Shown in pieces: positions 8,444-46,133 of a stretch of 51,718 nucleotides of DNA. This DNA is from a virus: the IMG/VR virus record IMGVR_UViG_3300013383_000248. One strand, written 5' to 3'. How positions within the stretch are numbered: the first letter of the stretch is position 1; every line of letters begins with the position of its first letter. The translations under genes were made by a program, and so were the position numbers. The notes under the pieces were generated by a model. That model searched no databases and was not told the DNA's origin. It saw only the letters and a list, made by a program, of their open reading frames with translations.

Positions 8444-9451
8444 TTAAATCACAGTTTGGACTTGAGGGATTCTGCATTTTTCACATACTCTTTCTTTCTT
8501 ATTATTAGAATAAAATAAATTATAGCAATTTTCACACTGATGAATATTAGGATCAAGTGCCAAACATTCAGGACATACATGGACCTTTACTCCATCAATT
8601 TCAAGGGGAAAATCTTCCCAATCATAATATAGCTGATTACAAAAACTACAATTAATGAGTTTATCATCATCAAAATCATAAGGCATATGATATTTGCTAG
8701 TCAGTGTAATCCACTGAAGATATTCTTTACTAGGAATAAACTTATAATAATCTGCCTTACTAATATCATCAAGCATATTGCATACTTTATTAATGGTATT
8801 ATACAATGTCCTAATATGCAAATCTTCATTCTGAGTATGCTCATGATGATACCCTACTGACAAATTTACTCCGGCAATACCCCACTCCGGCATAATAATA
8901 CTAATATCTGTAAATGACCCAAGTGCTTGTCTAAACCCAAAACTTTCAACATATTCCACGAACGTGAAATTTTCGCACTCATAGAAGACACAATCTCTTT
9001 CTCCTGCTCTATCCAGTTCAATCATATATTTAATATTTGGAGCTACTGGATGTCTTTCTATAAACATATGCGCACCATAGCCACCGACTTCCTCATCTGT
9101 TGTAAAAAGAACATAAGGCCTATACTTCTTACGCAGAATCTGGATAATCGCAAAAACACCTGCTCTATCATCCGCACCAAGGCCTTCCTTGCCTTTATAA
9201 ACAGCTCTTTTTTCATTATAGGTAAATTGCCTAATCGGCTGTCTAAATACGGTATCTACGTGTGCGATAAGCATTACCGGAATATTACCTTCAGCGTATA
9301 CATAATCTTCTGTAATTTCTACATTAGAATATTTATTAGAAACAAAATCACCGAGAGCTTTTAAAAGACCTACTTCACTAATTTTGAATAGCCCCTCCAA
9401 AAGCCCTCTACAATTTTCAGTAAATTCAGGAACTAAAACTTTTTTACCCAT
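8444..9451 (-). CDS. M42/M28-like metallopeptidase domain fused to C-terminal tandem zinc ribbons (335 aa)
   Basis: metal-ligand motifs IAHVDTV, GADDRAGV, TTDEEVGGYGA; C-terminus CSFCNQ..CPEC..CENC..CEKC. Confidence 0.5.
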   Translation of the reverse strand: MGKKVLVPEFTENCRGLLEGLFKISEVGLLKALGDFVSNKYSNVEITEDYVYAEGNIPVMLIAHVDTVFRQPIRQFTYNEKRAVYKGKEGLGADDRAGVFAIIQILRKKYRPYVLFTTDEEVGGYGAHMFIERHPVAPNIKYMIELDRAGERDCVFYECENFTFVEYVESFGFRQALGSFTDISIIMPEWGIAGVNLSVGYHHEHTQNEDLHIRTLYNTINKVCNMLDDISKADYYKFIPSKEYLQWITLTSKYHMPYDFDDDKLINCSFCNQLYYDWEDFPLEIDGVKVHVCPECLALDPNIHQCENCYNLFYSNNKKERVCEKCRIPQVQTVI

Positions 9452-9505: not shown

Positions 9506-10333
9506 TCAATTAGGGCTTATCTGTTCTTGGTCTTCTTCCTCGTGTTCAGCAATATATTCCTTAGCCCATTGACGTCCTGTGCGCTCAAAGTATAATACTT
9601 TATCACACATATGACAATAGGGCTTTGGCGTTTCGCATACTTGTTTACAATTTAAACGCATTTCGTCAAGACCTTCATATATCAATCTATCATCAATATT
9701 GGTATTAAGACCAAAAATTAATGAATTCATATCATTCGGCCAAGATTTATCTTCAAAATAAATACGATAGAAAGCTCGCTCTTGCGTAGGTCCATCGTTT
9801 TCAAATTCACAAACATCAAAGTATGGTTCATAAATACCAAGTTTTTCTGGACGAACCCAAGTACCGTGCAAACCACTCATTTGCGGGATATGGCCTTGGA
9901 TATATGCACGATTGGGCACAAGTCTTAAAGGAATGTCTATTTTTTTTACTTCATTTAAATCGAAGAAAATAGGCGCGTCAATATAAGCATATGATACACC
10001 TAGCTTCTTTAAATTATATAGCTCATAATATGTTTTTGCCGGTTCGCTATAAAAGAATTTAAAATCATATTTCTCCATCCAGCGTAATGTAAGTAAAGGA
10101 TTTAAATCGTGCAGCCGAATATAGAAGGTATAACCCTGATGCAGGCCGGCCTTACAAGTTGCAATACTTTTCCAATCCATTGGTTTGCCTTTTGGAGCAT
10201 CTATTACAAAATCCTTATCAGGATATTTTTCTACCAAATCAAGAAGCTAATCAATATACGCCCACTTGACTTCTATCTAGTCTGCCTTTTGGAGATATTG
10301 TTCTTCTTGGTTATGTCTTAAACAAACTTTCAT
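9506..10333 (-). CDS. hypothetical protein (275 aa) with two in-frame TAG codons near N-terminus
   Basis: AAAAGGAG RBS then ATG; MKVCLRHNQEEQYLQKAD-TAG-IEVKWAYID-TAG-LLDLVEKYPDKDF... is continuous with the track ORF 9506..10237. Confidence 0.5.
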
Positions 10334-10431
10334 TTCTATCTACTCCTTTTTATATTATTTTACCATATTATTAGCATTTAGTCAAGAAAATTCTTAAACC
10401 TATTTTCTATTTTGAGGTACGGTATAGACGC

Positions 10432-10470
10432 TTGACCTTGGCCGGAGCAGCACCCTTAAAAGGCAAAACA
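10432..10470 (-). terminator. rho-independent terminator (GGGCTGG stem, T-run on minus strand)
   Basis: aaaagggctggtttcccagccctt hairpin, minus strand followed by TTTTGTTTTGCC. Confidence 0.6.
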
Positions 10471-10499
10471 AAAGGGCTGGTTTCCCAGCCCTTCATATA

Positions 10500-10895
10500 T
10501 TAAGCTCTAGCGTAGCACATTGCGTGACGTGTCTTCTCACCTTCACCACCGGGGACCTTCATCTCCTGCTTCTTCACCAGACCATCGCGAACAAGACCTG
10601 CAAGGCGATGGCGAACCTTACCAAGGGTAATCTCTTCATCGCCAACCATATCATGAATCACATCAGCAGTACGGAACTGCTCATCAACTGCGGCAAATAC
10701 CTTCTCGCGTGCAACATCAGGCTCAGCCTTCTTAGCCTCACGCTTCTCGCGGTCCTTGGCATTACGCTGGTCAATACGGTCAATCTCTGCCTGACAAAAA
10801 TCAACCAGAACCTGGGCGTCAACCTCAACCTCTTCACCGCACAGCCGGCCAATCAGAGCATCATACAGCTCACGCTTTGTAAACTTCTTTTCCAT
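10500..10895 (-). CDS. family-B small protein, third diverged copy, on a GC-rich island inside the AT-rich region (131 aa)
   Basis: C-terminus ...GLVRDGLVKK..KTRHAMCYARA parallels B1/B2 ...LVDSG(K/R)V(I/V)KTTEKRRV(Y/F)YTKA; local GC ~50% versus ~30% flanks; own promoter and terminator. Confidence 0.5.
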   Translation of the reverse strand: MEKKFTKRELYDALIGRLCGEEVEVDAQVLVDFCQAEIDRIDQRNAKDREKREAKKAEPDVAREKVFAAVDEQFRTADVIHDMVGDEEITLGKVRHRLAGLVRDGLVKKQEMKVPGGEGEKTRHAMCYARA

Positions 10896-10923: not shown

Positions 10924-10959
10924 TATTTTATGTATATATTATATTATTTTATTTTTAAA
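10924..10959 (-). promoter_or_regulatory. AT-rich sigma70-type promoter copy
   Basis: tgtatatattatattattttatttttaaattttcaa. Confidence 0.5.
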
Positions 10960-10966
10960 TTTTCAA

Positions 10967-12601
10967 TTAAATTGCAATTGGCGTATTGCCGTTATAAAAA
11001 CGTTCAGGATAATGATTAATATATCTTGTGCTAATCATGTCAGCATAGGGATCATTCCCAATAACTTTTTTAGCTCTCAAATCCAAATCATCTTCTTCAA
11101 TCAGAAGAGCATTTAATCCCCAATAAGGAGCACCATTTAATCCAACTGTCTTAATTCTAATATCATAATTCTCTAACATTTTCGGCAATTCTTTATTAAC
11201 AAGACAATCAGTACAAACATAATGTTCATCATAGTCAGTGTTAATACTTTGATTTTCAATATGTCCAACAAATACTGGAATGAAGTCATCTTCAAAATGA
11301 GCTTCTTCACAGCACATACATCTATGCAAATCATTAAAGCAGTCTTCACAGACTAACTCTCCGTCTACATCAATTGCGTCATATTCACCAATACGTTCAC
11401 CACAACAATAACAATAAGTAGGCGGGTCGCAATCTTCGCAAACAACTGCTTCAGTATCATCAGTCCAATAACCACTCTCACCGCAGCACATACAAATCAT
11501 TGGACCTGAATAATTGATTGATGCCATTCGATTTCTATTATCAGGAGGTTCAACTGAGAAAATACCATAATTATCGCTATTGCCAAAATCATTATACATT
11601 TCATCAGTCTCAAATTCCAATAGGAATGGAATATCCTCTTTATCATCATCCCAAGCTTTAATATAAGAGCTGCTGTCCAAATTCTCCTGTGGCGTATCTC
11701 TATTATAACGCCATTCAGTCTTTTCTTCAACCAAATCAGCAAGCCAATTTACAAGTGCCTTATCAAAAGAAATATTATAATAAGGATAAGATTTAACAGA
11801 ACAAATTGTATAAGGATGAATGATAATCAATTCTCTCCAGCTCTTAGAGGTCCATTCAATCGCTGTATTCGTAGGATAATAAGGCTTGCTTGTAATATAA
11901 GCAACAACAACCATAGGGCTATTCATCATTTCAATAGTGCCCGCACGGTAGCCTCCCGGCCCTTGAGTCCAGTTCATGCAGCTTTCCCACCCATTTGCAT
12001 TATCGCTCATAGTCATATAATCCAAAGGATGAATAGAAAGAGTAAATTTAATTTTACTCTTACGCACTTCAGTAATGCGTGAAATACGATTGCGGAAAAT
12101 TTCAAAGTCAGGTAATTCAAATTCCTTAGCCATCTTCTGAAGAACCTTCATTACTTTGGCGCCTTCTGGAACTTTAATAGTCTTGCCTTCTTTATTACGA
12201 TAACTAAATCCTTTAGAAAGTTTGTTGGTATAAAGCTGCCGACCATTACTCAATCCATTTACAGCAACTCGAACGTCAAAATCATTATCTAAATATTCAG
12301 TGCTTTTGAATACTTTTCTAAGACTATCAAGAAACAAATAACCCGGTGCTTTACAATCAAAGACATAATCATTAATTTCTTTAATCTTTTTATTAGCCCC
12401 GTCTTCAATTTCAATTTCCTTTTCAAGCATCAACTTTCCACCGAAAATATCAAACAAAGTTTGTTTATTTTTATTCCATTCTTTGAGAATATGTTCAAGT
12501 GATGCTTTCAAAGTGAGATTATTTCTAACGCCACCCCACTTCTCAATGTATTCAGTAATATATTTTTTATCTTGCTCAGTTAATACTTCAAAAGGTGTCA
12601 T
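10967..12601 (-). CDS. large Cys-rich paralog P2 (544 aa)
   Basis: core SIHPLDYMTMSDNANGWESC...YRAGTIEMMNSP; C-terminal CMCCGE..CEDC..CYCCGE..CEDC..CMCCEE..CTDC zinc ribbons. Confidence 0.6.
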   Translation of the reverse strand: MTPFEVLTEQDKKYITEYIEKWGGVRNNLTLKASLEHILKEWNKNKQTLFDIFGGKLMLEKEIEIEDGANKKIKEINDYVFDCKAPGYLFLDSLRKVFKSTEYLDNDFDVRVAVNGLSNGRQLYTNKLSKGFSYRNKEGKTIKVPEGAKVMKVLQKMAKEFELPDFEIFRNRISRITEVRKSKIKFTLSIHPLDYMTMSDNANGWESCMNWTQGPGGYRAGTIEMMNSPMVVVAYITSKPYYPTNTAIEWTSKSWRELIIIHPYTICSVKSYPYYNISFDKALVNWLADLVEEKTEWRYNRDTPQENLDSSSYIKAWDDDKEDIPFLLEFETDEMYNDFGNSDNYGIFSVEPPDNRNRMASINYSGPMICMCCGESGYWTDDTEAVVCEDCDPPTYCYCCGERIGEYDAIDVDGELVCEDCFNDLHRCMCCEEAHFEDDFIPVFVGHIENQSINTDYDEHYVCTDCLVNKELPKMLENYDIRIKTVGLNGAPYWGLNALLIEEDDLDLRAKKVIGNDPYADMISTRYINHYPERFYNGNTPIAI

Positions 12602-17539: not shown

Positions 17540-19219
17540 CTAAACATAATCGTTAGGGTAAGTTCTCTTTAAATATTCCTTGGCACTAACAATAGGTCCT
17601 TTATCCTGAAGGAAGGGACGCCAGATTTTTTCATCTACCTTATCAACATCAATATATTGATAATCGCCCCATTCATCCACTTCCTTCGGCACATCATCAA
17701 AATCATAATCATCATAGCAATCATCACAAACATCAAAAGGTCCTTTGACATCACGCTGATGCTTACCATTAGGAGTTTTTACTACAAACATATAAGGCAA
17801 ACTCTGCTTCTTAAAATCATAGTCAAGCCATTTACGCTCATCACAGCAGCTGCAGGTCGCCATACGTCCATCTGCACACCAACTGCAATAGGCAGCACCA
17901 GTCCAATTATTGAACCAAGCTTCACTTTCATCAATCCAAGAACCGCACTCATCGCACTGAATCTTGCCTTCGCAGCTTGCACATACAACCTTGTCAGAGT
18001 CAGTAAATGCATCCACATTTCCAGAAGGCTCAACATGGTAACCTTTGCCACAACACATACATTCTGTTTCGCCAGAGTAATTAATTTCTACTTCATCTAC
18101 TGTTGGATTAATATAAGCAGAATGATTATCATAGTAATCATTATACATAGCACCGGTCTTCATACGAATGAATACTTCGCCAAAGTTAGTTGTATTCTTT
18201 TGGTTCTGCCAAACTTCATACATCTTATCATCATAATGCCAGCCCATATTTTCCTCGGCCAGTTTCTTGATTTTATTCATAACAAAATCACGCAGATAAA
18301 TATTGAAATAAGGATACTGCTTTACCTCAGTAATAATATCCTTATTAACAATATACAAACAACGCCAACGCTTATTGCTCCAAGTTCTTTCGGTATCCTG
18401 CCCATAATAGTTAAGAGGATAATAAGGATGGTCAGACTCAACATATGCTTCAAGAACAACAGGCGAGTTCATCATTTCAATAGTGCCAAGACGATAATCG
18501 CCACCGTTATACCAGTTCATGCAACTATCCCAATTGCAATCATTATCACTCATAGTAAGATAATCAAGCGGATGAATGGACAGTACAAGGTCAGCATCAA
18601 TCATTCGGTCATTCAGAACACGGGAATGGAGAATACGGAATTGCTCAAATGCATCTTTATCCAATTCAAACCAATCAACAATCTTAGCCATCATTCGCAT
18701 AAGCTTCATATCAGTCTTAAGCTCAAGCGGCTTAGACCCTTCAGCATGCGGGCCACGATTAAGAACAACAGACTTGGGACCCCAATCAAGCATATACTGA
18801 TTCTTATTAACAACAAGGGATTCAGTATCAAGACAATGCTCAATGATGGCACAACAATACATACGCTCATCTTTGTCAAGAGTTGTATCCATCCAATGAT
18901 AATATGTAGAAGTAATTTGCTCGTAAGCATTAATGAAATCTTTCACTTTTTCCAATTCAGGATTATTATAGATTTCATCATACATTTCATTAATCTTATC
19001 TGCCAAATCATCATTAGAAGCTTCATATCTGATGTGCTTTTTAACCATCAGATTATTGCCGAGAAGCTCAAACAGTTCAGGCTTTTCCGCAGCCCAAAAC
19101 CGCAGCAGGTGATTGATTTCATCTACATCATTACATTCATCAGAATGAAGATACATTTTAATATAATCACTCAAAAGAGTTTTTTCTTCTTCCGGAATAA
19201 GTGTTCTTAAGTCTGTCAT
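17540..19219 (-). CDS. large Cys-rich paralog P3 (559 aa)
   Basis: core SIHPLDYLTMSDNDCNWDSC...YRLGTIEMMNSP, C-terminal CMCCGK..CASC..CDEC..CSWC..CSCC..CDDC ribbons; N-terminus alignable with P2. Confidence 0.6.
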   Translation of the reverse strand: MTDLRTLIPEEEKTLLSDYIKMYLHSDECNDVDEINHLLRFWAAEKPELFELLGNNLMVKKHIRYEASNDDLADKINEMYDEIYNNPELEKVKDFINAYEQITSTYYHWMDTTLDKDERMYCCAIIEHCLDTESLVVNKNQYMLDWGPKSVVLNRGPHAEGSKPLELKTDMKLMRMMAKIVDWFELDKDAFEQFRILHSRVLNDRMIDADLVLSIHPLDYLTMSDNDCNWDSCMNWYNGGDYRLGTIEMMNSPVVLEAYVESDHPYYPLNYYGQDTERTWSNKRWRCLYIVNKDIITEVKQYPYFNIYLRDFVMNKIKKLAEENMGWHYDDKMYEVWQNQKNTTNFGEVFIRMKTGAMYNDYYDNHSAYINPTVDEVEINYSGETECMCCGKGYHVEPSGNVDAFTDSDKVVCASCEGKIQCDECGSWIDESEAWFNNWTGAAYCSWCADGRMATCSCCDERKWLDYDFKKQSLPYMFVVKTPNGKHQRDVKGPFDVCDDCYDDYDFDDVPKEVDEWGDYQYIDVDKVDEKIWRPFLQDKGPIVSAKEYLKRTYPNDYV

Positions 19220-24743: not shown

Positions 24744-26873
24744 TTAGTTCTCCTTTTTATCTTCAAGATTAAAAATTGTTTTTAATTCTTCTACTTTATC
24801 AAGCTGTTCCCATGGGCTATTACATTCAACGCGACCAAAATGGCCGAAGCAGGCATAAGGAAGGTAGCGTATATGTTTTAGGTCAAACTGATGAATGATA
24901 CTGCGTGGTGCAAAATCAAATGTTTGATTAACTGCATCAAGGATTTCAGCAATAGGCTTCTTCTCTGTGCCGAAACAATTAATATCAATAGACGCCGGTT
25001 CCGTTTGACCAATGATATAGGCCACTTGAATCATGCACTTATCGCATACTCCTGATGCAACAAGATTTTTAGCCACATAACGTGCCATATATGCACCACT
25101 GCGGTCTACCTTACTTGGGTCTTTACCTGAAAAACAATTACCTGTAATGAAAACTCTATTATTATATCTTAATACAAGGTTATGAGAAGACACATTAATA
25201 CAATACATCCACGGGTCATTATCCTCATAATCTTCAATAGTTAAATTTGCGATTGAAGGGCCTGAAGTTCTAAATGGAGTAGAATATTTATATTTACCTT
25301 GTCTTACTTCATAACAGATACTCTTACGAGCATAATTTTCTTTAAATGTTTCATCTACTCTATCATCAATAGAAAAATGAGAAGATGTGCCATATACTGA
25401 CATAAAAATAAATTGTATAAAATCAGCTTCATCTTTATGAGTAGTTCTAAATACACAATCTCTATCTCCATCCCATTTAATTACCTCATCAGCAATTACT
25501 TGGGCCTGATGTAGATTACATTTAGACAAACATTCATTCATTTTTTTATTTACAAAAGAGGGCTTATACCAAAAGATGTTATATTCTTTATCTGTAGTTT
25601 CATTATAATTAAATCCTGTTGAAGCAAATAGTTCCCTTAATGCTTCTTTTTTATATTCTTTTTTAACTCTGATTCTTCCAGTCCATCCTGAATTTTCTTT
25701 TAAAATAGACCCATCTGCACAAAATGCTATTTGCAATCTAATTTCATCATCAGTTAAATTAAGACCAGGATTATCTTTAAAATCATAAGTAAAATAGATA
25801 GGGATTTGAACACTTCTAAAACCGTTATTTTTATAATAATGATCTAGAATTTCTTGGCAAGTTTTCTTTTGATAATTACCTTTAGATGTTCTATACAGGA
25901 CGTTATGATTGTCAGATAATACCATATCTAAAGATTTATTAGTAGCAATATGATACATCTTAGTCTTAGGAAGTCTTATAAATTCACCATTAACAAATGA
26001 AATCTTACCATCATCCCATTGAGCTACTTTATCATCAGAAGAAAATTCAGAAATCTTTTTCCAACCATTAAGAGTTAAAAATTCTGTATCTCCATTTACA
26101 CATCCGCCGCCATGAGGTGCATATCCGCCATACGTATCTACAACAATCTTACGACCGGTCAATCCTGTATCAGCCTTGGGACCGCCTTCTACAAACTTGC
26201 CTGTTGGATTAATATAAAATTTACAATCTTTTTTAATGGCATAACCTTGAAGGGCAATATTACAAATGTTCGTAATATCAGGCGTAATCTCTTTAATACT
26301 ATATTTGTCTTTATGTTGGGCTGATACGACAATTGTATCAATCCCTTCAAAGTTGCCATTATCATCATATTGGACAGTTACTTGGCATTTACCGTCAGGC
26401 AATGCCCAAGGAAGTAAATCATTCTTATACTTGCTGAACATAATGACCGAGATATTATTAGCAAGTTGCTGGGCAATAGGCATATAGTTTTCTGTCTCAT
26501 TAGTTGCATAACCAAACATCATACCTTGGTCGCCCGCACCATCCCTATCAACACCCGCAGCGATGTCAGGAGATTGATTTACTACATTAATAATATATGA
26601 ACAAGTGTCGCAGTTAAATCCTGCTTCATCATTGTCATAACCAATAAATCTAAGAGTCTCTCTTGCAATTTCCTGATAAGGAATAGACTGATTTGTCTTA
26701 GCCGTAATCTCTCCCATAATATGGAAGATACTCGGACTAATAGTACATTCACAAGCTACTCGTGCATCAGGGTCGAGCTGGAGGACATAATCTAGGATAG
26801 CATCACTTACCTAATCACAAACTTTATCTGGATGACCCGCAAAAACACTTTCACTAGTAAATAAATAACTCAT
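24744..26873 (-). CDS. metK: S-adenosylmethionine synthetase (MetK) interrupted by an intein; 709 aa precursor; one TAG codon at 26811-26813 aligning with conserved Gln
   Basis: [30 protein letters not shown] (E. coli HPDKIADQISD); GAGDQGMMFGYA; GGPKADTGLTGRKIVVDTYGGYAPHGGG | intein | CFSGKDPSKVDRSGAYMARY; GGAGG RBS. Confidence 0.85.
25137..26102 (-). mobile_element. intein (322 aa) with LAGLIDADG-type homing endonuclease, inserted in MetK after HGGG
   Basis: starts CVNGDTEFLTLNGW, contains IRLQIAFCADGSIL (LAGLIDADG-like), ends VFITGN followed by +1 Cys of CFSGKD. Confidence 0.7.
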
Positions 26874-32684: not shown

Positions 32685-34055
32685 TCAATTCTCCTCCAAA
32701 GTCATTTCTTCCTCAATTTCTTCCATATCAGGCATTTCGGCATCAACCTTAATTAGGTTCTCTAGTACTTTAAAATTATAAGATTTGTCTTTTGCAACAT
32801 CAAAGCGTGTGCCGTTCATCTTGCGAACAACTATGCCTTCAATAACATGAGAAGAATCAATTGTAGAAGGAATATCCTCATACTTAGCAATTCGTGCAAG
32901 GAAATCCTCTTCAGTAGTATAGATGAAACGTTCCAGTTCAGGTACAGTTTCAAAGCCCATCTGCTCTGCACGCTGCTTAACAAGATCCCAAGGATATTCA
33001 ATTACTACGCCTTCAGGGGTAGTATAAGTCATACGATAAACAAAATAGCGATTAAGAGGCTTATCATCACCAGTAGGAGAACAACCATAAGAAAAGGTGG
33101 TAGTCTTACCATACTGTTTAATAAATGCTTTATCTTTAGTTTTAGTGTTATCGCCCGGCGTCATAATAGGCGCGTTAGATGCATAGAAGCCTGCAATTTC
33201 GCCAAAGCATTCCTCATTCGGCAGAAGTTTACCCTTGAAGCGTTCGCCCCAAGCTCTACGGAAATCATCATTACCATAGAAACCGCCAGTGCTATTGTTA
33301 GTAAGAACAGTGCGGCGAGTGCCAATCAGATAACGCATTTCAGTCTTGGGAGTGAGATGAGACTGTGCGGACATACGCCATTTCTTCGGCAGCCAATTGC
33401 TATGTGCAATAAGCTTGGTAAGGAAGAAACCCTTCTCACCAATAATTGCAGTCTGATAAGCATTACGAGAGCTAGTACCGTGAACCTTTTCGGTCAAACA
33501 GATAATATCACCCGGCTTAAACATATCCATATTAAAACGAAGCTGCGGAGTATCAATATGTTCTGCGAAGAATGGATACTTAATACGACATTTCTTTGCA
33601 GACTTACGGTCGCGTTCGCCGCGTGCAGTAGACTGAGAAGCTCTGGGCTTATGCATCGGCACATACTTCTCGGCAATAACATGACCATTAAAGGTAGATA
33701 CAATATCACCTTCGGCCAAGTTGCTAATGTCGCCAAAAGGAGCAAGACAAGTAAGCGGAAGAACAAGGCCTTCAGACTTATTGCCACGCAGTCGAATTGC
33801 GCCTACATTACGCTTTACAGGGTCAATAAAACCACCTGCCGGATTACCATTTTCATCTTTGCGGCGGAAAAGGTCATTCGCCTTACCAAATTCTTCACTA
33901 ATCTGACCGTCCGTGGGGAAATAGACGTAAAGGTCATTTTCATTTACGGACTTATCAACAATGGTAGTGATACCAAATACTTCACAGGCATTCAGACGGT
34001 CAGCATTCTCCGCAGGTCTAATGTTTTTTACTTTACAAACATATACATTATACAT
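32685..34055 (-). CDS. ATP-dependent RNA ligase (Rnl2/Rnl5-like nucleotidyltransferase; 456 aa)
   Basis: motif I TEKVHGTS (KxHG lysine adenylyltransferase motif as in T4 Rnl2 KIHGTN), N-terminal OB-like domain. Confidence 0.65.
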   Translation of the reverse strand: MYNVYVCKVKNIRPAENADRLNACEVFGITTIVDKSVNENDLYVYFPTDGQISEEFGKANDLFRRKDENGNPAGGFIDPVKRNVGAIRLRGNKSEGLVLPLTCLAPFGDISNLAEGDIVSTFNGHVIAEKYVPMHKPRASQSTARGERDRKSAKKCRIKYPFFAEHIDTPQLRFNMDMFKPGDIICLTEKVHGTSSRNAYQTAIIGEKGFFLTKLIAHSNWLPKKWRMSAQSHLTPKTEMRYLIGTRRTVLTNNSTGGFYGNDDFRRAWGERFKGKLLPNEECFGEIAGFYASNAPIMTPGDNTKTKDKAFIKQYGKTTTFSYGCSPTGDDKPLNRYFVYRMTYTTPEGVVIEYPWDLVKQRAEQMGFETVPELERFIYTTEEDFLARIAKYEDIPSTIDSSHVIEGIVVRKMNGTRFDVAKDKSYNFKVLENLIKVDAEMPDMEEIEEEMTLEEN

Positions 34056-38264: not shown

Positions 38265-38318
38265 GTAAAATTTTCCAATTATGAAACCAAAAATTGGAAT
38301 GGGATTTTCTCCCATTCC
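38265..38318 (-). terminator. rho-independent terminator (13-bp perfect stem)
   Basis: aattggaatgggattttctcccattccaatt, minus strand followed by TTTTTGG. Confidence 0.6.
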
Positions 38319-38320
38319 AA

Positions 38321-38683
38321 TTATTTCCTTGGACGTATCAGGGTCAATCGGTATTTAATTCCACTGTAAGTAAATTCCAATTCTCTCTCAGGATTTACCA
38401 CTACAATATTTTCCAAATTTGTATCAAGGTCACAATCAGCATCTTCAAGAGCAACTGCCAAATACTGGATAAGCCATCGCTTATCTTCATCCGGTTTGCG
38501 TTCCCGCTTGACACTTTCCACTTTCTTCCTATCAGCACGTCGTGCCTTTTTAGCACCTGCTTCAAGCTCCGGCGGCAATTCAAACAGTTTTTCGCCCCTA
38601 TCAATTCGCTTGTCCATTTCCAAAACTTGTTTGGCTTCTTCAATAGAGATTTTAAGCGAATTTGCCAATTTTTCAGCGTTCAC
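38321..38683 (-). CDS. family-A small protein, copy 1 (120 aa)
   Basis: paralog of 41285..41731 (shared DK(R/A)IDR(G/N)(E/Q)K and C-terminal Y(R/E)LTLI(R/Q)). Confidence 0.5.
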   Translation of the reverse strand: MNAEKLANSLKISIEEAKQVLEMDKRIDRGEKLFELPPELEAGAKKARRADRKKVESVKRERKPDEDKRWLIQYLAVALEDADCDLDTNLENIVVVNPERELEFTYSGIKYRLTLIRPRK

Positions 38684-38781
38684 AGTGTTCTTTCCACCTT
38701 TTTGAAATTTTGTTCCATAGAGCTAACTAGAGTTAGTTCTAGCTTAGAGGGGCGTTAAGCCCCTCTAGCCTTTTTCGGCGT

Positions 38782-39156
38782 TTATGCCTTGGTGTAATAA
38801 ACACGCCGCTTTTCAGTGGTCTTAATCACCTTACCACTATCTACCAGAGTTTTCAGCAAGTTCGCCATTCTCTGCGTAGACATATCATTTTCATGCTTGG
38901 CATTGAAATCAGCCACAACCGGCAGTTCCTTGAGCAGTTCCGCAATAGAATAAGTCCGGTTCATTTCCATCTGCTGATAAATCTGTTCCACCATCTCCGC
39001 ATTCTCCGCCTGCTGTTCGGTAGTTTTCTTGTCTGCGGACTTCTTAGAAACAGAAGCAAGCAGGGCTTCCAGCTTCTTCCGCACATCATCTGCAAGGACA
39101 ATGTCAGTGTTGTTCAGAACGGTGTTCAGAGCCTGAGCGTAGGTAATCTTTTCCAT
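38782..39156 (-). CDS. family-B small protein, copy 1 (124 aa)
   Basis: paralog of 41728..42153 and 10500..10895; C-terminus LVDSGKVIKTTEKRRVYYTKA. Confidence 0.5.
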   Translation of the reverse strand: MEKITYAQALNTVLNNTDIVLADDVRKKLEALLASVSKKSADKKTTEQQAENAEMVEQIYQQMEMNRTYSIAELLKELPVVADFNAKHENDMSTQRMANLLKTLVDSGKVIKTTEKRRVYYTKA

Positions 39157-39204
39157 GGTATCAATTCCTTTCTAGCGGTAGGTCGCAACCCTTATTTGTT
39201 TTTG

Positions 39205-39256
39205 TGTTCCTCTCTTGGAACAATTATATTGTATCACAAATCTGCTGATTTGTCAA
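39205..39256 (-). promoter_or_regulatory. TTGACA-N17-TACAAT promoter with conserved +1 palindrome TGTTCC-AAGAGA-GGAACA
   Basis: minus read TTGACAAATCAGCAGATTTGTGATACAAT ATAATTGTTCCAAGAGAGGAACA; same palindrome at 40381, 44387, 47850. Confidence 0.55.
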
Positions 39257-39382
39257 TACCTTTTTAATTAAATTTGCCACGATTTTTTTTCGGCTTGACA
39301 TTTTATCGCGGGACGCTGGAAGTATTTGTAGAATCGGCAATTTCAATACCGTAGCTATGAAAATTTTGGAAGGGGTGGGGCT

Positions 39383-40285
39383 TTATTCCAAGCCCCAATC
39401 ATTGTCATATCTTCCCAATTTCTTGAAGGGAAAATATTCAATACCTCTTTCAAACTTGTGCTTGGTCTTTGCACCAATCAGGGCAAACAGCATACTTTCA
39501 ATAATTGTATCTTCAAGGGCAGTATGTGCTTCTTCAAAATCTTCCTGCTGGAAACAATAGGCAAATGCTTTTTCTGCATTAGTCGGGTAATATCTTCCGC
39601 TTGCAGTATGCCAATCATTATTATAACACATCTGCTTATATTCAGGATTATTCAACAGGTGTTCACAAGACAGACCCCAAAGGTCAAACAGCGGATAACA
39701 CTTGCTACGGAGGCGGAACACATCCGGTTCAAACTCTTTCTGCGAATAGGGCTTGCTTCCGCGGGCTAATGCGTCACATCTGTTATTCTGGTAGGCTTCC
39801 CATTCAAAAAAGTCCTGTGAATACAGCTTGGAAATATAAAGCTCTGTGAATGGAATCGCTTTCTTGAAGTCGAACATACTGTTATATGCTCCGACAGCTT
39901 CAACAGCGTCCAAATCTTCAACCAATTCAGCAATAGCCGTGTTCCAATCGGTTAAATGAATTTCTCCGGTTTTCAGACGCTCCAAATAAATCGGACGCTT
40001 ACTTGCATAATATGCAGTATTGAAAACTGCGGGAACGCTGAAAATCTCAGAAATGAGATAAGACGCACGCTTATAGACCTTGCCCTTAATATCCACAATC
40101 TGCCATCCCAAATCATAAATCAGGGGCTTAGCGATTGCGACATTCTTTTTCTGTTCTGCGGTAAATTTTGCCGCATACGGAAGTGTTGCCGTTTCACAAT
40201 CCAGAATCAGGTAATACTTACGACGCTTGTCTAACTTAATCATAGGGAAATCCATCCTTTTAATATAATCAATAGGGCTTGCCAT
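39383..40285 (-). CDS. DEDDh-family 3-prime to 5-prime exonuclease (DnaQ/RNase T-like; 300 aa)
   Basis: Exo I ILDCETATL, Exo II AYNSMFD, Exo III HTALEDTIIE. Confidence 0.7.
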   Translation of the reverse strand: MASPIDYIKRMDFPMIKLDKRRKYYLILDCETATLPYAAKFTAEQKKNVAIAKPLIYDLGWQIVDIKGKVYKRASYLISEIFSVPAVFNTAYYASKRPIYLERLKTGEIHLTDWNTAIAELVEDLDAVEAVGAYNSMFDFKKAIPFTELYISKLYSQDFFEWEAYQNNRCDALARGSKPYSQKEFEPDVFRLRSKCYPLFDLWGLSCEHLLNNPEYKQMCYNNDWHTASGRYYPTNAEKAFAYCFQQEDFEEAHTALEDTIIESMLFALIGAKTKHKFERGIEYFPFKKLGRYDNDWGLE

Positions 40286-40306
40286 CGCTTCCCTTATTGC
40301 TCTTTC

Positions 40307-40335
40307 ATTATATCACACATCAGGCGATTTGTCAA
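40307..40335 (-). promoter_or_regulatory. perfect TTGACA-N17-TATAAT promoter
   Basis: minus read CTTGACAAATCGCCTGATGTGTGATATAATGAAAG; A-tract upstream. Confidence 0.65.
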
Positions 40336-40665
40336 GAGTTTTTTTTATTATTTGAAAATTTCTTTTTGATTGCCTTTCGTGTTTTGTCCTCTCTCTTGGA
40401 ACAATTATAGTTTATCACATCTTGCCCAAAATGTCAAGAAGAATATTTATTCATTTTCAATGAATATTTATGCACGCTTTAACACTTTAATGCACTAAAG
40501 TGGTGCCGCTTTAGGGATTTATCACTTTAGTCAAATGAAGCAGGATTTTGCTGGAAAAATTGGTAAATACTGGAAAAAACGAAAATTCCTCGCGGCTGGG
40601 CCGTGGCCGCGAGGCTCAAATGTCAATAGTCAAAATGCACAAAAATAAAAGGGGCATTTCTGCCC

Positions 40666-41229
40666 CTATACATTCGCCATTACCAAATTGTAATTATTTT
40701 CAAAAACTTGTAAATCTTCAACAGTCGGTTCAAAAGCCTCAAATCTGTCATTCGGGATATACTTATGAGACTTGCGGAAATAATTTCTCATCAGACTTTC
40801 CAGCACCTGAGCCAAATCATCATTCGGCACTTGGTAAGATTTTACAACTTCTACATCAGAGATAACAACGCCATCCCTTTTGTATTCATGGTTAATAAAA
40901 TCACGCATCCGCTTTACAACAATATTAGCTTTTCCAATTTTTGTAAAAACCCAATTGCCTACATCATCGAACATCTTAATCAGATAAGTGTTGCTAACTC
41001 CATCTTCTTTTGGACGCTTCTTAGTGATAAATTCACCAATGGCAAGAATTACCCTGTTTACTTTATCCAGAATATACTTTTTTGCCCAATCCTTACAGGC
41101 ATTAAAAATTTCTTCACAGGCTTCAAACCAATGCGGCTTCCAACGTGCATTAGCATTGTCAAATCTTTCCTTTGCACCCTCAAAATCATTCGAGGAAACA
41201 TAATCAGAATAAGTGGGATTTTTTGCCAT
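40666..41229 (-). CDS. hypothetical protein (~187 aa from ATG at 41229)
   Basis: AGGTGATAAAA-ATG RBS/start (MAKNPTYSDY...); track ORF uses an upstream alternative start. Confidence 0.45.
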   Translation of the reverse strand: MAKNPTYSDYVSSNDFEGAKERFDNANARWKPHWFEACEEIFNACKDWAKKYILDKVNRVILAIGEFITKKRPKEDGVSNTYLIKMFDDVGNWVFTKIGKANIVVKRMRDFINHEYKRDGVVISDVEVVKSYQVPNDDLAQVLESLMRNYFRKSHKYIPNDRFEAFEPTVEDLQVFENNYNLVMANV

Positions 41230-41284
41230 TTTTATCACCTTTTTCAATTTTTTTTGTAGAAAATGGGGAAAATTCCCCATTTTC

Positions 41285-41731
41285 TTATGCTTTTTTAGCT
41301 CTTTTCTGGATAAGTGTCAATTCGTAGCGATTTCCATTACTTGTAAACATAATAGTTCGCTCTTTATTTGTAATTTCTTCATCCAGCACTTCAAATTCTG
41401 CCAATTCTGTCAAAAATTTTGACAAACCGGCGATAATTTCGCCCTTTGTTGCATTAGGCTTACGCGGGCGGTAAACATTGCTTTTGACATTGTGCTCTTT
41501 GACATTAGCCAATTTCATAGCTTGCTTATGTTCTTCTGGAGACAAATCAAAATCAACTTTCTGATTTCTGTCAATAGCTTTGTCGGCGTCCAGAATGTCA
41601 ACAGCTTCATCGATTGAACATTCCAGCTTATCAACAAGATTATCGACTTTTGCCCATTCCTTTTCTGTCAGCTTTCTCATAAATTTCCTTTCAATGAGTG
41701 GGGCGGATTTCTCCGCCCCTTGGTTCATCAC
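41285..41731 (-). CDS. family-A small protein, copy 2 (148 aa)
   Basis: paralog of 38321..38683. Confidence 0.5.
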   Translation of the reverse strand: MMNQGAEKSAPLIERKFMRKLTEKEWAKVDNLVDKLECSIDEAVDILDADKAIDRNQKVDFDLSPEEHKQAMKLANVKEHNVKSNVYRPRKPNATKGEIIAGLSKFLTELAEFEVLDEEITNKERTIMFTSNGNRYELTLIQKRAKKA

Positions 41732-42153
41732 GCCTTAGTGTAGAACACTCTACGCTTCTCCGTGGTCTTGACGACCCTGCCACTATCTACCAGCGGCTTA
41801 ATCAGGCTTGCCATCTTCTGAGAAGAAAGTTCCGTCTCATGCTCTGCATTATATTCAGAGACAACAGGCAGTTCCTTCATCAGGTCTGCGATTGCATACT
41901 TGCGTTCAAACGCCATCTGCTCATAAATATGTTCAGTGTAAGCGGCGTTTTTCTCCTGTTCCTGAGACTGCTTCTTGTTTTCCTTCTTATTGTCCAGCAG
42001 TTCAATCTGGTGATTGATGAAGTCAATCAGAGATTCATCTGCGTCATGCTGGGCGAGGAAGTCAGAAACAGAGGTGAACATTTCCTTGCGGGTGGGAGCC
42101 TTAATCTTATCCATAGTATCAATTCCTTTCTGGTTTTTAAGTGTTTCCCTCAC
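41728..42153 (-). CDS. family-B small protein, copy 2 (141 aa)
   Basis: C-terminus LVDSGRVVKTTEKRRVFYTKA; start/stop overlap with copy-2 A gene. Confidence 0.5.
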   Translation of the reverse strand: MRETLKNQKGIDTMDKIKAPTRKEMFTSVSDFLAQHDADESLIDFINHQIELLDNKKENKKQSQEQEKNAAYTEHIYEQMAFERKYAIADLMKELPVVSEYNAEHETELSSQKMASLIKPLVDSGRVVKTTEKRRVFYTKA

Positions 42154-42164
42154 TTGTTGACTTA

Positions 42165-42194
42165 ATTATATCACATCAGGTGGGGTTTGTCAAG
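42165..42194 (-). promoter_or_regulatory. TTGACA-N17-TATAAT promoter for cassette 2
   Basis: plus ttaattatatcacatcaggtggggtttgtcaag. Confidence 0.55.
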
Positions 42195-44972: not shown

Positions 44973-45446
44973 TTATTCCAGCCCGTTCAGAATTTCTTTC
45001 AATACTTCAAGAATGTTTGTTGTAGTCGGGTCAATCGCCCCGCCCAAGTCCCAATCACGCCGTACTCTTGCGTCATCATCAAAAATCAGGGCTTCTTCAT
45101 CTGCGGCAAGTCTTGCGGCTTCAACCTTATGTTTCGGCGTTCCATAAGCTACGCACCGCAGACTGTCGAATGGAAAACCATATGATTTCAGCCAAGCACG
45201 TTTTGCTTTTCTTACTTCATCATCATACTGTTTGTTCGGCTCTTTAGAAAGCCAAGTGATAACAGCAACGTTAATTCCGCAATTCTGGAGACTACGAAGC
45301 AGACACCCAAGTTCTGCCATATCTACAAGCGGTTCGGCGGTCTGATAGGGTGTAGGGTCATATGCTCTAAGCATTTCCAACCAGTTAGGAACATTGTATA
45401 AGTCAACCAGAGTTCCATCAAGATCGAAGCAAATTTCCTTAATCAT
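44973..45446 (-). CDS. HAD-superfamily phosphatase (157 aa)
   Basis: motif I FDLDGTLVD at N-terminus (as in T4 Pnk phosphatase domain and 5-prime nucleotidases). Confidence 0.6.
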   Translation of the reverse strand: MIKEICFDLDGTLVDLYNVPNWLEMLRAYDPTPYQTAEPLVDMAELGCLLRSLQNCGINVAVITWLSKEPNKQYDDEVRKAKRAWLKSYGFPFDSLRCVAYGTPKHKVEAARLAADEEALIFDDDARVRRDWDLGGAIDPTTTNILEVLKEILNGLE

Positions 45447-45516
45447 TTTATCATTTCCTTTCTCTTTTGGAGTATCTTTATTATAGCAGGTTCAGCCGGA
45501 TTTGTCAAGTGTTTTT

Positions 45517-45900
45517 TCAAACTAATTTGATATTTTTATAATTTTCAATCACGCGGGCACTTGCGAATGGCATAATTGACATATCCTTTGCTTTAGGGTC
45601 TACACTGATTTGGATATTTTTTCCAAGAGCATAGGCGTATCCGATTTCCCAAGCTGTTCCAGAATCAGAATACAAACCATCATACACAGCAAAAACCATG
45701 TCGCAGTCTTGAATTGCCGCGATATCCATTTTGAAAACTTCACGTGCCCAATTTTCCTGCGACATATCCCAAGCATTCGGGATTGTATGTTCTTGCGGCA
45801 CATATACATCATACCCAAGCCGGCGGAAACCAGCCACATATGAATCAATTCTTTCTTTAGTCTCAGGGCGGAAGAAAGCACCAGCCATATAAATCTTCAT
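45517..45900 (-). CDS. nucleoside 2-deoxyribosyltransferase-like protein (127 aa from ATG)
   Basis: MKIYMAGAFF...DSGTAWEIGYAYALGK signature; upstream TTG start in track lies inside a terminator hairpin, so the ATG at ~45900 is preferred. Confidence 0.55.
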   Translation of the reverse strand: MKIYMAGAFFRPETKERIDSYVAGFRRLGYDVYVPQEHTIPNAWDMSQENWAREVFKMDIAAIQDCDMVFAVYDGLYSDSGTAWEIGYAYALGKNIQISVDPKAKDMSIMPFASARVIENYKNIKLV

Positions 45901-45935
45901 TCCACATTTTCCTTTTCTTTTGGATAGAGGGGATT

Positions 45936-46133
45936 TCAAAATCCCCTCTTGATTTTCTCAAATGCGGGATAGAATCTATCTTCCCACATATCCATCAAAT
46001 CTTGGTCGTTAGTCCGCTGGATTTCCCAGACAAGAGCCCCATATGCGTTATGCTCATACAGCTCAGCCTGCTCAGGGTACTCTCGTGCCCACTCCATCTG
46101 CTGATTGATAAACGACACAATTGTATTTTCCAT
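45936..46133 (-). CDS. small hypothetical protein (65 aa)
   Basis: TTGACT-N17-TATAAT promoter at 46140-46175 and AAGGAAAGGGG RBS. Confidence 0.4.
   Translation of the reverse strand: MENTIVSFINQQMEWAREYPEQAELYEHNAYGALVWEIQRTNDQDLMDMWEDRFYPAFEKIKRGF

Follow-up and report, generated by a model that had tools for sequence, protein, structure and literature searches.

The 51,718-nucleotide stretch of viral DNA that we analysed (IMG/VR virus record IMGVR_UViG_3300013383_000248; hereafter, the window) carries two copies of a small cassette, in each of which a gene that we call B is followed by a gene that we call A, and a solitary third B-type gene, B3. The B proteins belong to a large and real family that lacks curated annotation and is confined to uncultivated large phages of the gut and rumen. 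The explanation of the cassettes that we favour, albeit tentatively, is that B is an abundant early winged-helix DNA-binding subunit which serves in an early takeover together with two adaptors, A1 and A2. The window itself is a fragment of a large uncultivated phage genome, since proteins identical or nearly identical to the cassette proteins were seen on metagenomic contigs of up to 190-200 kb, one of them bearing the source label 'Caudoviricetes sp.'. The DNA is AT-rich (GC about 0.30-0.46), nearly all of the genes lie on the minus strand, and several tRNA genes are present. In GenBank phages, megablast found no nucleotide match to the window region and tblastn found no match for A2 or B2.

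All of the open reading frames from which the original prediction started (cassette 1 at 38321-39156, cassette 2 at 41285-42153 and the B-like gene at 10500-10895) exist at these positions, on the minus strand, which is also the strand of every cassette, B3 and promoter feature given below. The order of elements is the same in both cassettes: a promoter, B, a GC-rich hairpin without a U-tract, A and a terminator. The promoters, which had been proposed for each cassette and are indeed found in front of each, conform to the TTGACA-17-TATAAT consensus with a TG extension and have the form TTGACAAA-N10-TGTGATA(T/C)AAT. The promoter of cassette 2 (42165-42193; TTGACAAA-N10-TGTGATATAAT) has perfect -35 and -10 elements and, besides the TG extension, an upstream A-tract. 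The longest open reading frame of B2 reaches 42153; the start supported by a ribosome-binding site is the ATG at 42114, preceded by the conserved GAAAGGAATTGATACT, and the resulting protein (41728-42114, 128 aa) has the length of 113 of 120 homologs. B2 is followed by the GC-rich intercistronic hairpin (41700-41719; GGGGCGGA-GAAA-TCCGCCCC; no U-tract), by A2 (41285-41680, 131 aa, true start ATG 41680), an A2-type protein with the C-terminus ...YELTLIQKRAKKA, and by a terminator hairpin (41258-41285, z = -5.2). In cassette 1, the promoter (39228-39256; TTGACAAA-N10-TGTGATACAAT) precedes a 5'-terminal stem-loop in the leader, B1 (38782-39156, 124 aa), an intercistronic hairpin with a GC-rich stem of 9-10 bp (38744-38768) and a second, smaller hairpin next to it, the A1-type protein A1 (38321-38683, 120 aa, C-terminus ...YRLTLIRPRK), which has a GTG start with an AAGGTGG ribosome-binding site, and a terminator with a 13-bp stem and a T-run (38292-38322). 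The hairpin at 38744-38768 has an A-run upstream, which gives it a terminator score for the opposite strand only; the B hairpins of relatives (e.g., loci L007, L017, L018 and L019) also often have an A-run upstream, no U-run downstream and an antisense terminator score. Beyond B1, B2, B3, A1 and A2, no further A or B gene was found in the window at E<=0.01.

The cassettes had been described as diverged paralog pairs, and sequence comparison bears this out: B1 and B2 are 50% identical (E=1e-38), A1 and A2 are 37% identical (E=4e-15), and the C-terminal motif quoted for the B proteins, ...LVDSG(K/R)V(I/V)KTTEKRRV(Y/F)YTKA, is exact. The DNA of the two cassettes can also still be aligned in the promoter, in a translation-initiation region of 30 nt (93% identity) and in the 203 nt at the 3' end of B (71%); alignment of the A genes is poor. 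When 1.84 billion representative proteins were searched with a profile of B1 and B2, 1189 representative clusters (at 50% identity) were retrieved at E<=1e-3, which sets a lower bound on the size of the family, and nearly all of them are full-length proteins of 115-130 aa. Longer matches, considered as possible domain fusions, turned out to be mis-called starts or generic proteins with tandem winged helix-turn-helix (wHTH) domains or ankyrin repeats, and told us nothing further. The sole existing family that corresponds to B is phrog_19455 of the PHROGs database, which is listed there with unknown function and carries no annotation; it was matched by 29 of 80 B-family members (best E=9.5e-12) and by B2 at E=0.0019, and was not reached by B1 or B3. 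Scans of A, B and B3 with PHROGs and PADLOC gave nothing above threshold, every Pfam match of these proteins fell below its gathering score, and NCBIfam gave nothing, so that the curated threshold of no named wHTH family (MarR, PadR, ArsR, BlaI, TrmB and others) was exceeded. A generic member of the B family matched one unannotated fecal phage among GenBank phages, and a plasmid search with it returned no match.

The third B-like gene required profile methods. BLASTP found no similarity of B3 to B1 or B2, and a comparison of shallow profiles of the B and B3 clades, made from close relatives only and underpowered (Neff 1.1-1.5), gave E=0.037. A hidden Markov model (HMM) of the family built from 147 members without B3 matched B3 over residues 1-113 at 40.3 bits (E=1.5e-14), and hhalign to the family gave 97.1% for B3 alone and 99.4% (E=3e-21, 108 columns) when two syntenic orthologs were included. 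Profile alignment thus supports the paralogy, and B3 is a divergent B-type protein, as originally proposed.

The AlphaFold2 (AF2) model of B2 (pLDDT 78) has a hairpin of two helices (9-22 and 27-66) in its N-terminal part and, C-terminally, a winged helix whose elements (E72-74, H75-91, H98-111, E114-119, E122-127) follow the alpha1-beta1-alpha2-alpha3-beta2-wing-beta3 topology and can be superposed on solved winged helices. B is acidic in its N-terminal half and basic in its C-terminal half. Conservation is highest in three segments, namely a helix with the motif F-I-x-H-E-I-E-L-L-x-K-K, the recognition helix (S-N-Q-K...) and the wing (K-R-K-x-Y-F): values of 2.37-2.39 bits per column are reached in helix 27-45 and in the other two, compared to 1.6-1.9 elsewhere in the protein. 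Among PDB sequences, the best match of the B-family profile is the winged helix of Hop2 (2mh2), at a borderline E=0.0012. Pfam matches of an 80-member B alignment are scattered and weak, a few members for each family at E values of 1e-5 or weaker, and concern winged-helix families only, and PADLOC gave weak matches in the winged-helix region only. Given that its C-terminal half is predicted to fold as a canonical winged helix, B is very probably a DNA-binding protein, in line with the DNA-binding role that had been suggested for the cassette proteins.

The A proteins are of a different kind. The AF2 model of A2 (pLDDT 80) has three helices, a basic linker (R-x-RKP in A2) modelled with low confidence, and a confident C-terminal alpha-beta3 domain (residues 77-122); the linker is disordered and contains a conserved R-x-R/K-K-P/x-N/D motif. 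No recognisable DNA-binding fold was found in A. Its fold search in BFVD retrieved only an uncharacterised homolog, and similarity to the fold of the N- or C-terminal domain of MotA was not found, T4-type MotA appearing in the same Foldseek search only below significance (E=0.14). Searches of PDB sequences with single A proteins and with profiles gave nothing, a PHROG corresponding to A was not found (the one match was that of A2 to phrog_20625, at E=0.0035), and a comparison of the A and B profiles revealed no relation between them.

The module to which the cassettes belong is a property of a large clade of gut and rumen phages, with contigs mostly of ~120-200 kb, whose hosts are probably Firmicutes. 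A motif scan of metagenome-assembled genomes (MAGs), one genome per species, gave 27 loci, all on gut or rumen contigs, where B mostly has an A-family gene directly behind it; on several of these contigs there are two pairs, separated by 3-4 kb. Among viral contigs, a scan yielded 66 loci, mainly from contigs of 120-200 kb, and in them 185 B genes, 80 of which are directly followed by A. At least two B genes are present in 63 of the 66 viral loci, in arrays such as exo-B-B-A or B-B-B-B-A, and the copy number of B in the clade is 2-6 per 16 kb. B usually adjoins a gene of a DEDDh-like exonuclease (exo in the arrays above) within a block of small genes with consensus sigma-70-type promoters; a homolog of this 300-aa exonuclease is found in 61 of the 66 viral loci, and close relatives keep the window order B2-A2-(199 aa)-exo-B1-A1 exactly. 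In the window, the exonuclease gene lies between the cassettes (39383-40285) behind tandem promoters at 40409-40437 and 40307-40335. Its motifs D-x-E, N-x3-D and H-x4-D were read by eye; its family is phrog_20187 (function unknown), and it has a weak match to a DNA polymerase exonuclease subunit family.

The upstream promoter of the exonuclease gene merits a separate remark. This extra promoter (TTGACA-17-TAAACT, within 40391-40437) is, in its -10 element and leader, 93% identical over 29 nt to the promoter and leader of B1, including the TGTTCC...GGAACA 5' stem-loop, and it may be either one of two tandem promoters or a remnant of a B-type unit.

The history of the two genes of the cassette is not the same. 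In a tree, the A proteins form two clades, each of which contains one window copy and one copy from many other genomes; the C-terminus of the A1-type clade is ...KYKVTLSAPRS and that of the A2-type clade is ...YELTLVQKRKPK. The B proteins group by genome and not by the type of their partner. Among nine non-redundant genomes that have both pair types, the mean identity of A is 0.39 within a genome, 0.53 between genomes for the same type and 0.37 between genomes for different types; for B it is 0.66 within a genome and 0.46 or 0.45 between genomes when the partner type is the same or different, respectively. Since the A1 and A2 clades are shared by many divergent phage genomes and the B-A-exonuclease arrangement is conserved in the 27 MAG and 66 viral loci, the duplication of the cassette is ancient and fixed, and the A1 and A2 types constitute ancient sets of orthologs; these data do not support a mobile or duplicating module of recent date along the lines of the original prediction. 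The excess of within-genome over between-genome identity in B indicates that the B copies evolved in concert, most simply by gene conversion, and that the adjacent A genes did not. In the window, homogenisation has affected the promoter, the translation-initiation region and the half of B that forms the winged helix.

Upstream regions of B genes (~70 distinct ones) nearly always contain their own cTTGACAA-17-TATAAT promoter with a TG extension, an upstream A-tract and stem-loops in the leader, and in the clade of the window the initiation region GAAAGGAATTGATACT-ATG is almost invariant. At these promoters, no operator-like repeat or inverted repeat was found beyond the -35 and -10 elements. 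The B genes are 7-14 GC points above their own locus in most genomes, with a GC content at third codon positions (GC3) of 0.55-0.79, and the A genes are not. In B1, B2 and B3, AAG accounts for 86-100% of Lys codons, CAG for 100% of Gln codons and CTG for 62-78% of Leu codons; the corresponding values are 39%, 40% and 7% in 22 genes of the left half of the window and 51%, 73% and 34% in 13 genes of the right half, and the codon use of the A genes is near the right-half average. GAA is still the preferred Glu codon in B1 and B2, so that plain GC pressure does not account for the bias, which is a preference for particular codons. We read it as probable translational selection on a very highly expressed gene, and B would probably be an abundant early protein, one of those that these phages express most strongly in the early phase.

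Nearly all related loci have a hairpin behind B, usually without a U-tract, and in many phages a separate promoter of A stands after it, with the -35 element (TTGACA) located within the 3' arm of the hairpin, an arrangement which suggests that B and A are expressed at different levels. The possibility that the hairpin is an operator for a protein was rejected because the two pairs of a single genome have hairpins with different stem sequences.

The window contains promoters of two sharply distinct classes, and for both of them the number of copies expected by chance is 0. The consensus class (TTGACAAA-N10-TGTGATATAAT) is present at 39228, 40307, 42165, 43037, 43504, 45480 and 50427, i.e., in the right part only. 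The AT-rich class (TTGAAAATTTAAAAAAAATATTATATAAT), which has an almost invariant spacer and a nearly invariant 29-nt sequence, is present at 1757, 4449, 6498, 6685, 10938, 21266, 26906 and 46438, mostly in the left part (46438 is the one right copy), and several of its members adjoin tRNA genes. The promoter of B3 (10938-10966; TTGAAAATTTAAAAATAAAATAATATAAT) belongs to the AT-rich class and differs at 3 positions from the copies at 1757, 4449 and 46438.

According to the explanation that we favour, B would be made in very large amounts right after infection, as its consensus -35 and -10 elements with TG extension and A-tract, the leader stem-loops, the strong conserved ribosome-binding site and the shared codon bias lead us to expect, and its winged helix would allow it to bind DNA as a generic subunit, which may be a dimer. 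A would be made at a lower level, in the window by read-through past the U-less hairpin, and in the case of A1 from a GTG start, and elsewhere from its own promoter. A may add a second function or specificity to B, and the two ancient types of A would then give two kinds of complex. Gene conversion would keep the B copies of one genome alike while the A partners stay distinct, a pattern that fits a design with a common DNA-binding subunit and two adaptors. B3 would be a divergent B-type protein supplied from the AT-rich promoter class. The likely role of such a system is early takeover via global binding or organisation of phage or host DNA, which would affect transcription; a global or architectural role is preferred over that of a specific regulator because of the extreme expression signals, the conservation of the DNA-contacting elements in very different phages and the presence of multiple nearly equivalent copies of B. 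A more specific and less probable version of this, which we regard as a conjecture worth keeping in mind, is that the module constitutes an unrecognised early takeover system of phages of gut Firmicutes, in which B is the subunit that coats or bridges DNA, the new-fold proteins A1 and A2 direct it to its tasks and the linked DEDDh exonuclease acts alongside. If so, the tasks of A1 and A2 could be such as the silencing of the host nucleoid, on the one hand, and the organisation or activation of phage DNA, on the other.

Several considerations speak against the subunit-and-adaptors explanation. We infer DNA binding, dimerisation, the interaction of B with A and high expression alike. The confidence of the AF2 models is moderate (pTM 0.43-0.49), and they were made from shallow alignments of close relatives, the HMM matches at E<=1e-3 in viral loci may take in a few generic winged-helix proteins, and the A types were assigned by C-terminal motifs, with neighbour-joining trees that carry no support values. 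In viral loci, A is not directly behind B in over half of the cases, so B can act without an adjacent A. Recombination between repeats might cause the gene conversion of B as a neutral side effect, in which case it would be no sign of function. Finally, an annotated homolog was not found, the Pfam, NCBIfam, PADLOC and PDB sequence searches all remaining below threshold.

Alternatively, B, A or both may be sequence-specific transcription factors that switch between promoter classes, like T4 MotA/AsiA or other temporal regulators, with B1 and B2 produced from consensus-type promoters and B3 from the AT-rich class. We consider this unlikely, though it is the strongest competitor. It would account for the existence of two such different promoter classes, one of them with its nearly invariant 29-nt sequence, and for B paralogs that appear to be expressed from both; the predicted winged-helix fold of B is suited to such a role, and A, with its two domains and basic linker, recalls MotA, to which it has the weak Foldseek match (E=0.14) mentioned above. 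However, the recognition helix and wing are conserved over >1000 clusters from very different phages, which is unexpected if each phage had its own operators, the extreme expression signals and codon bias of B are unusual for specific regulators, and the promoters lack a conserved operator-like repeat beyond their -35 and -10 elements.

It is also conceivable, but improbable, that the cassette is an anti-defence operon of the type formed by an anti-CRISPR gene (acr) and an anti-CRISPR-associated regulator (aca), with A inhibiting a host defence and the winged-helix protein B autoregulating a very strong promoter. In keeping with this, the unit combines strong early promoters and small genes with a protein of HTH type, and many small unknown genes lie around it. 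The gene order, with the wHTH protein first and A second, is nevertheless the reverse of that in a typical acr-aca operon, A is conserved as two ancient orthologous types instead of being variable, and B is present in multiple copies, often without an adjacent A. Moreover, the codon bias and strong expression signals are on B and not on A, there is no inverted-repeat operator overlapping the B promoters, and PADLOC yielded only the weak matches in the winged-helix region.

That B3 is a moron or another recent horizontal acquisition, and the cassettes a recently duplicated mobile module, is very improbable and has already been largely refuted. The observations that had led to this idea are correct as such: B3 (10500-10895, 131 aa, GC 0.51) is a solo gene without an A partner, lies on a GC island (0.50 in DNA of about 0.30; more precisely, 0.50-0.51 compared to 0.25-0.38 in the flanks) and has both a promoter and an intrinsic terminator of its own, the latter with a 10-bp stem and a UUUUGUUUUG tail (10464-10494). 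A word-indexed search, in addition, found only 12 close homologs of B3, all of them at least 79% identical. Yet syntenic orthologs of B3 exist in two distant relatives. In locus L032, the ortholog is located between homologs of the genes at 10967-12601 and 9506-10237, and beyond the latter there follow homologs of 8444-9451, 7152-8363 and 6721-7032; in L033, it is directly upstream of the homolog of 9506-10237. The neighbours of B3 in these loci are 25-38% identical to the window proteins, and the orthologs themselves are 24-30% identical to B3 (E=4e-6 and 7e-7) and carry the FIDHE(L/V)ELL motif. Also, elevated GC and GC3 characterise the B genes of most genomes, B1 and B2 have the same codon bias as B3, and the promoter of B3 is of the ordinary local AT-rich type. 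Taken together, the shared codon bias, the family-wide GC trait, the synteny and the local promoter class remove the case for a moron: when synteny and codon usage were compared, the atypical composition held and the recent acquisition did not, and B3 is an old resident paralog and not a recent import. As to the cassettes, the A1 and A2 types already existed before many of the genomes diverged. In an AT-rich phage, a GC-rich island that has a promoter and a terminator of its own thus need not be a moron; the island of B3 reflects a family-wide codon and amino-acid bias in a long-resident gene. Least credible is a toxin-antitoxin or other addiction-type module, which two small adjacent genes, one with a DNA-binding fold, might bring to mind, as no toxin family or fold was detected, the pair occurs on large phage-like contigs only and on no plasmid, and it is part of multi-copy arrays with very strong constitutive-type promoters.

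The surroundings of B3 contain two further features. Downstream of its terminator, there is a GC-rich stretch (10412-10470, minus strand), one frame of which (...KGAAPAKVKRLYRTSK*) has B-like codons (AAG); this stretch may be a relic of a lost gene. The proteins encoded at 10967-12601, 17540-19219 and 7152-8363 (minus strand) form a second paralog family, of large proteins that bear Cys-rich repeats (CxxC pairs) at the C-terminus and are annotated neither by Pfam nor by PHROGs; the first two are 31% identical (E=2e-52), and a member of the family flanks B3 both in the window and in L032.

Among known systems, the closest working analogy for the abundant DNA-binding subunit that B may be is provided by Rok and sRok of Bacillus, which are nucleoid-associated proteins similar to H-NS. 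They are small and have an N-terminal helix followed by a C-terminal winged helix, the order seen in the AF2 model of B, and the helix of Rok forms a coiled-coil dimer; the expression signals of B would be in line with an abundant generic DNA binder of this kind. Rok has paralogs on mobile elements, and a small plasmid-borne one hetero-dimerises with Rok and modulates it (PMC9757077). In sequence, Rok and B have no significant relation: the B profile matches the Rok chains 5zux and 5zuz at E=0.27, and Pfam WH_Rok is matched by 1 of 80 B members, at 9e-4. Rok also has no A-type partner gene, and the conserved FIxHEIELLxKK helix is a feature of B.

Hop2 and Mnd1 (TBPIP) also have winged-helix domains; the match of B to that of Hop2 includes the wing motif GK..K..K.K.YF, and the Mnd1 HTH family of Pfam is the one that the largest number of B members match (5 of 80). 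As may also hold for B, two paralogous proteins with a winged helix and a coiled coil work together. Unlike in B, however, the winged helix comes first and the coiled coil after it; the two proteins are eukaryotic meiotic recombination factors, and the borderline match is confined to the generic winged helix. T4 MotA and AsiA are small early-expressed phage proteins that redirect the host RNA polymerase to a second promoter class by appropriating sigma; one of the partners has two domains with a linker and an alpha/beta DNA-binding C-domain, and two promoter classes are present in the window as well. The motA and asiA genes of T4 are not known to be adjacent to each other.

Identifying what B binds would show how this clade of phages takes over its host. 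The duplicated pair, in which one gene is homogenised within genomes while its neighbour persists as two ancient types, is in addition a natural experiment on the interchangeability of subunits.

The surroundings of the cassettes are rich in small unknown genes. The gene between A2 and the exonuclease gene (40666-41280, minus strand, likely start ATG 41229) has its own terminator and a weak match to an endonuclease PHROG (E=8e-4). It is an insertion/deletion polymorphism, since it is missing in the otherwise nearly identical relative L004, and the junction is just upstream of TTTTGTGCATTTTGACTATTGACA.

Elsewhere in the window, an Rfam scan detected tRNAs only. The tRNA cluster at 538-6632 (minus strand) includes Ser-GCT, Val-TAC, Phe and Leu-TAG; it also contains an odd tRNA at 6561-6632, which has a two-base 'anticodon' according to ARAGORN and whose tRNA status was confirmed by Rfam, and a short tRNA-like Rfam match at 1465-1519 was missed by ARAGORN. 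The S-adenosylmethionine synthetase (MetK) encoded at 24744-26717 (minus strand) is 657 aa long, and its Pfam N, M and C domains are split by an insert of ~340 aa (roughly residues 175-517) that matches PhoH-like and terminase-like P-loop PHROGs; in tblastn, other phage MetK genes match it in the two flanks only (~50% of the query). The right part (44973-45939, minus strand) also has genes of a nucleotidase-like protein and of a nucleoside 2-deoxyribosyltransferase (Pfam E=3e-23), and, together with a DNA methyltransferase at 5070-5981 and an RNA ligase at 32685-34055, they hint at nucleotide salvage or DNA modification.

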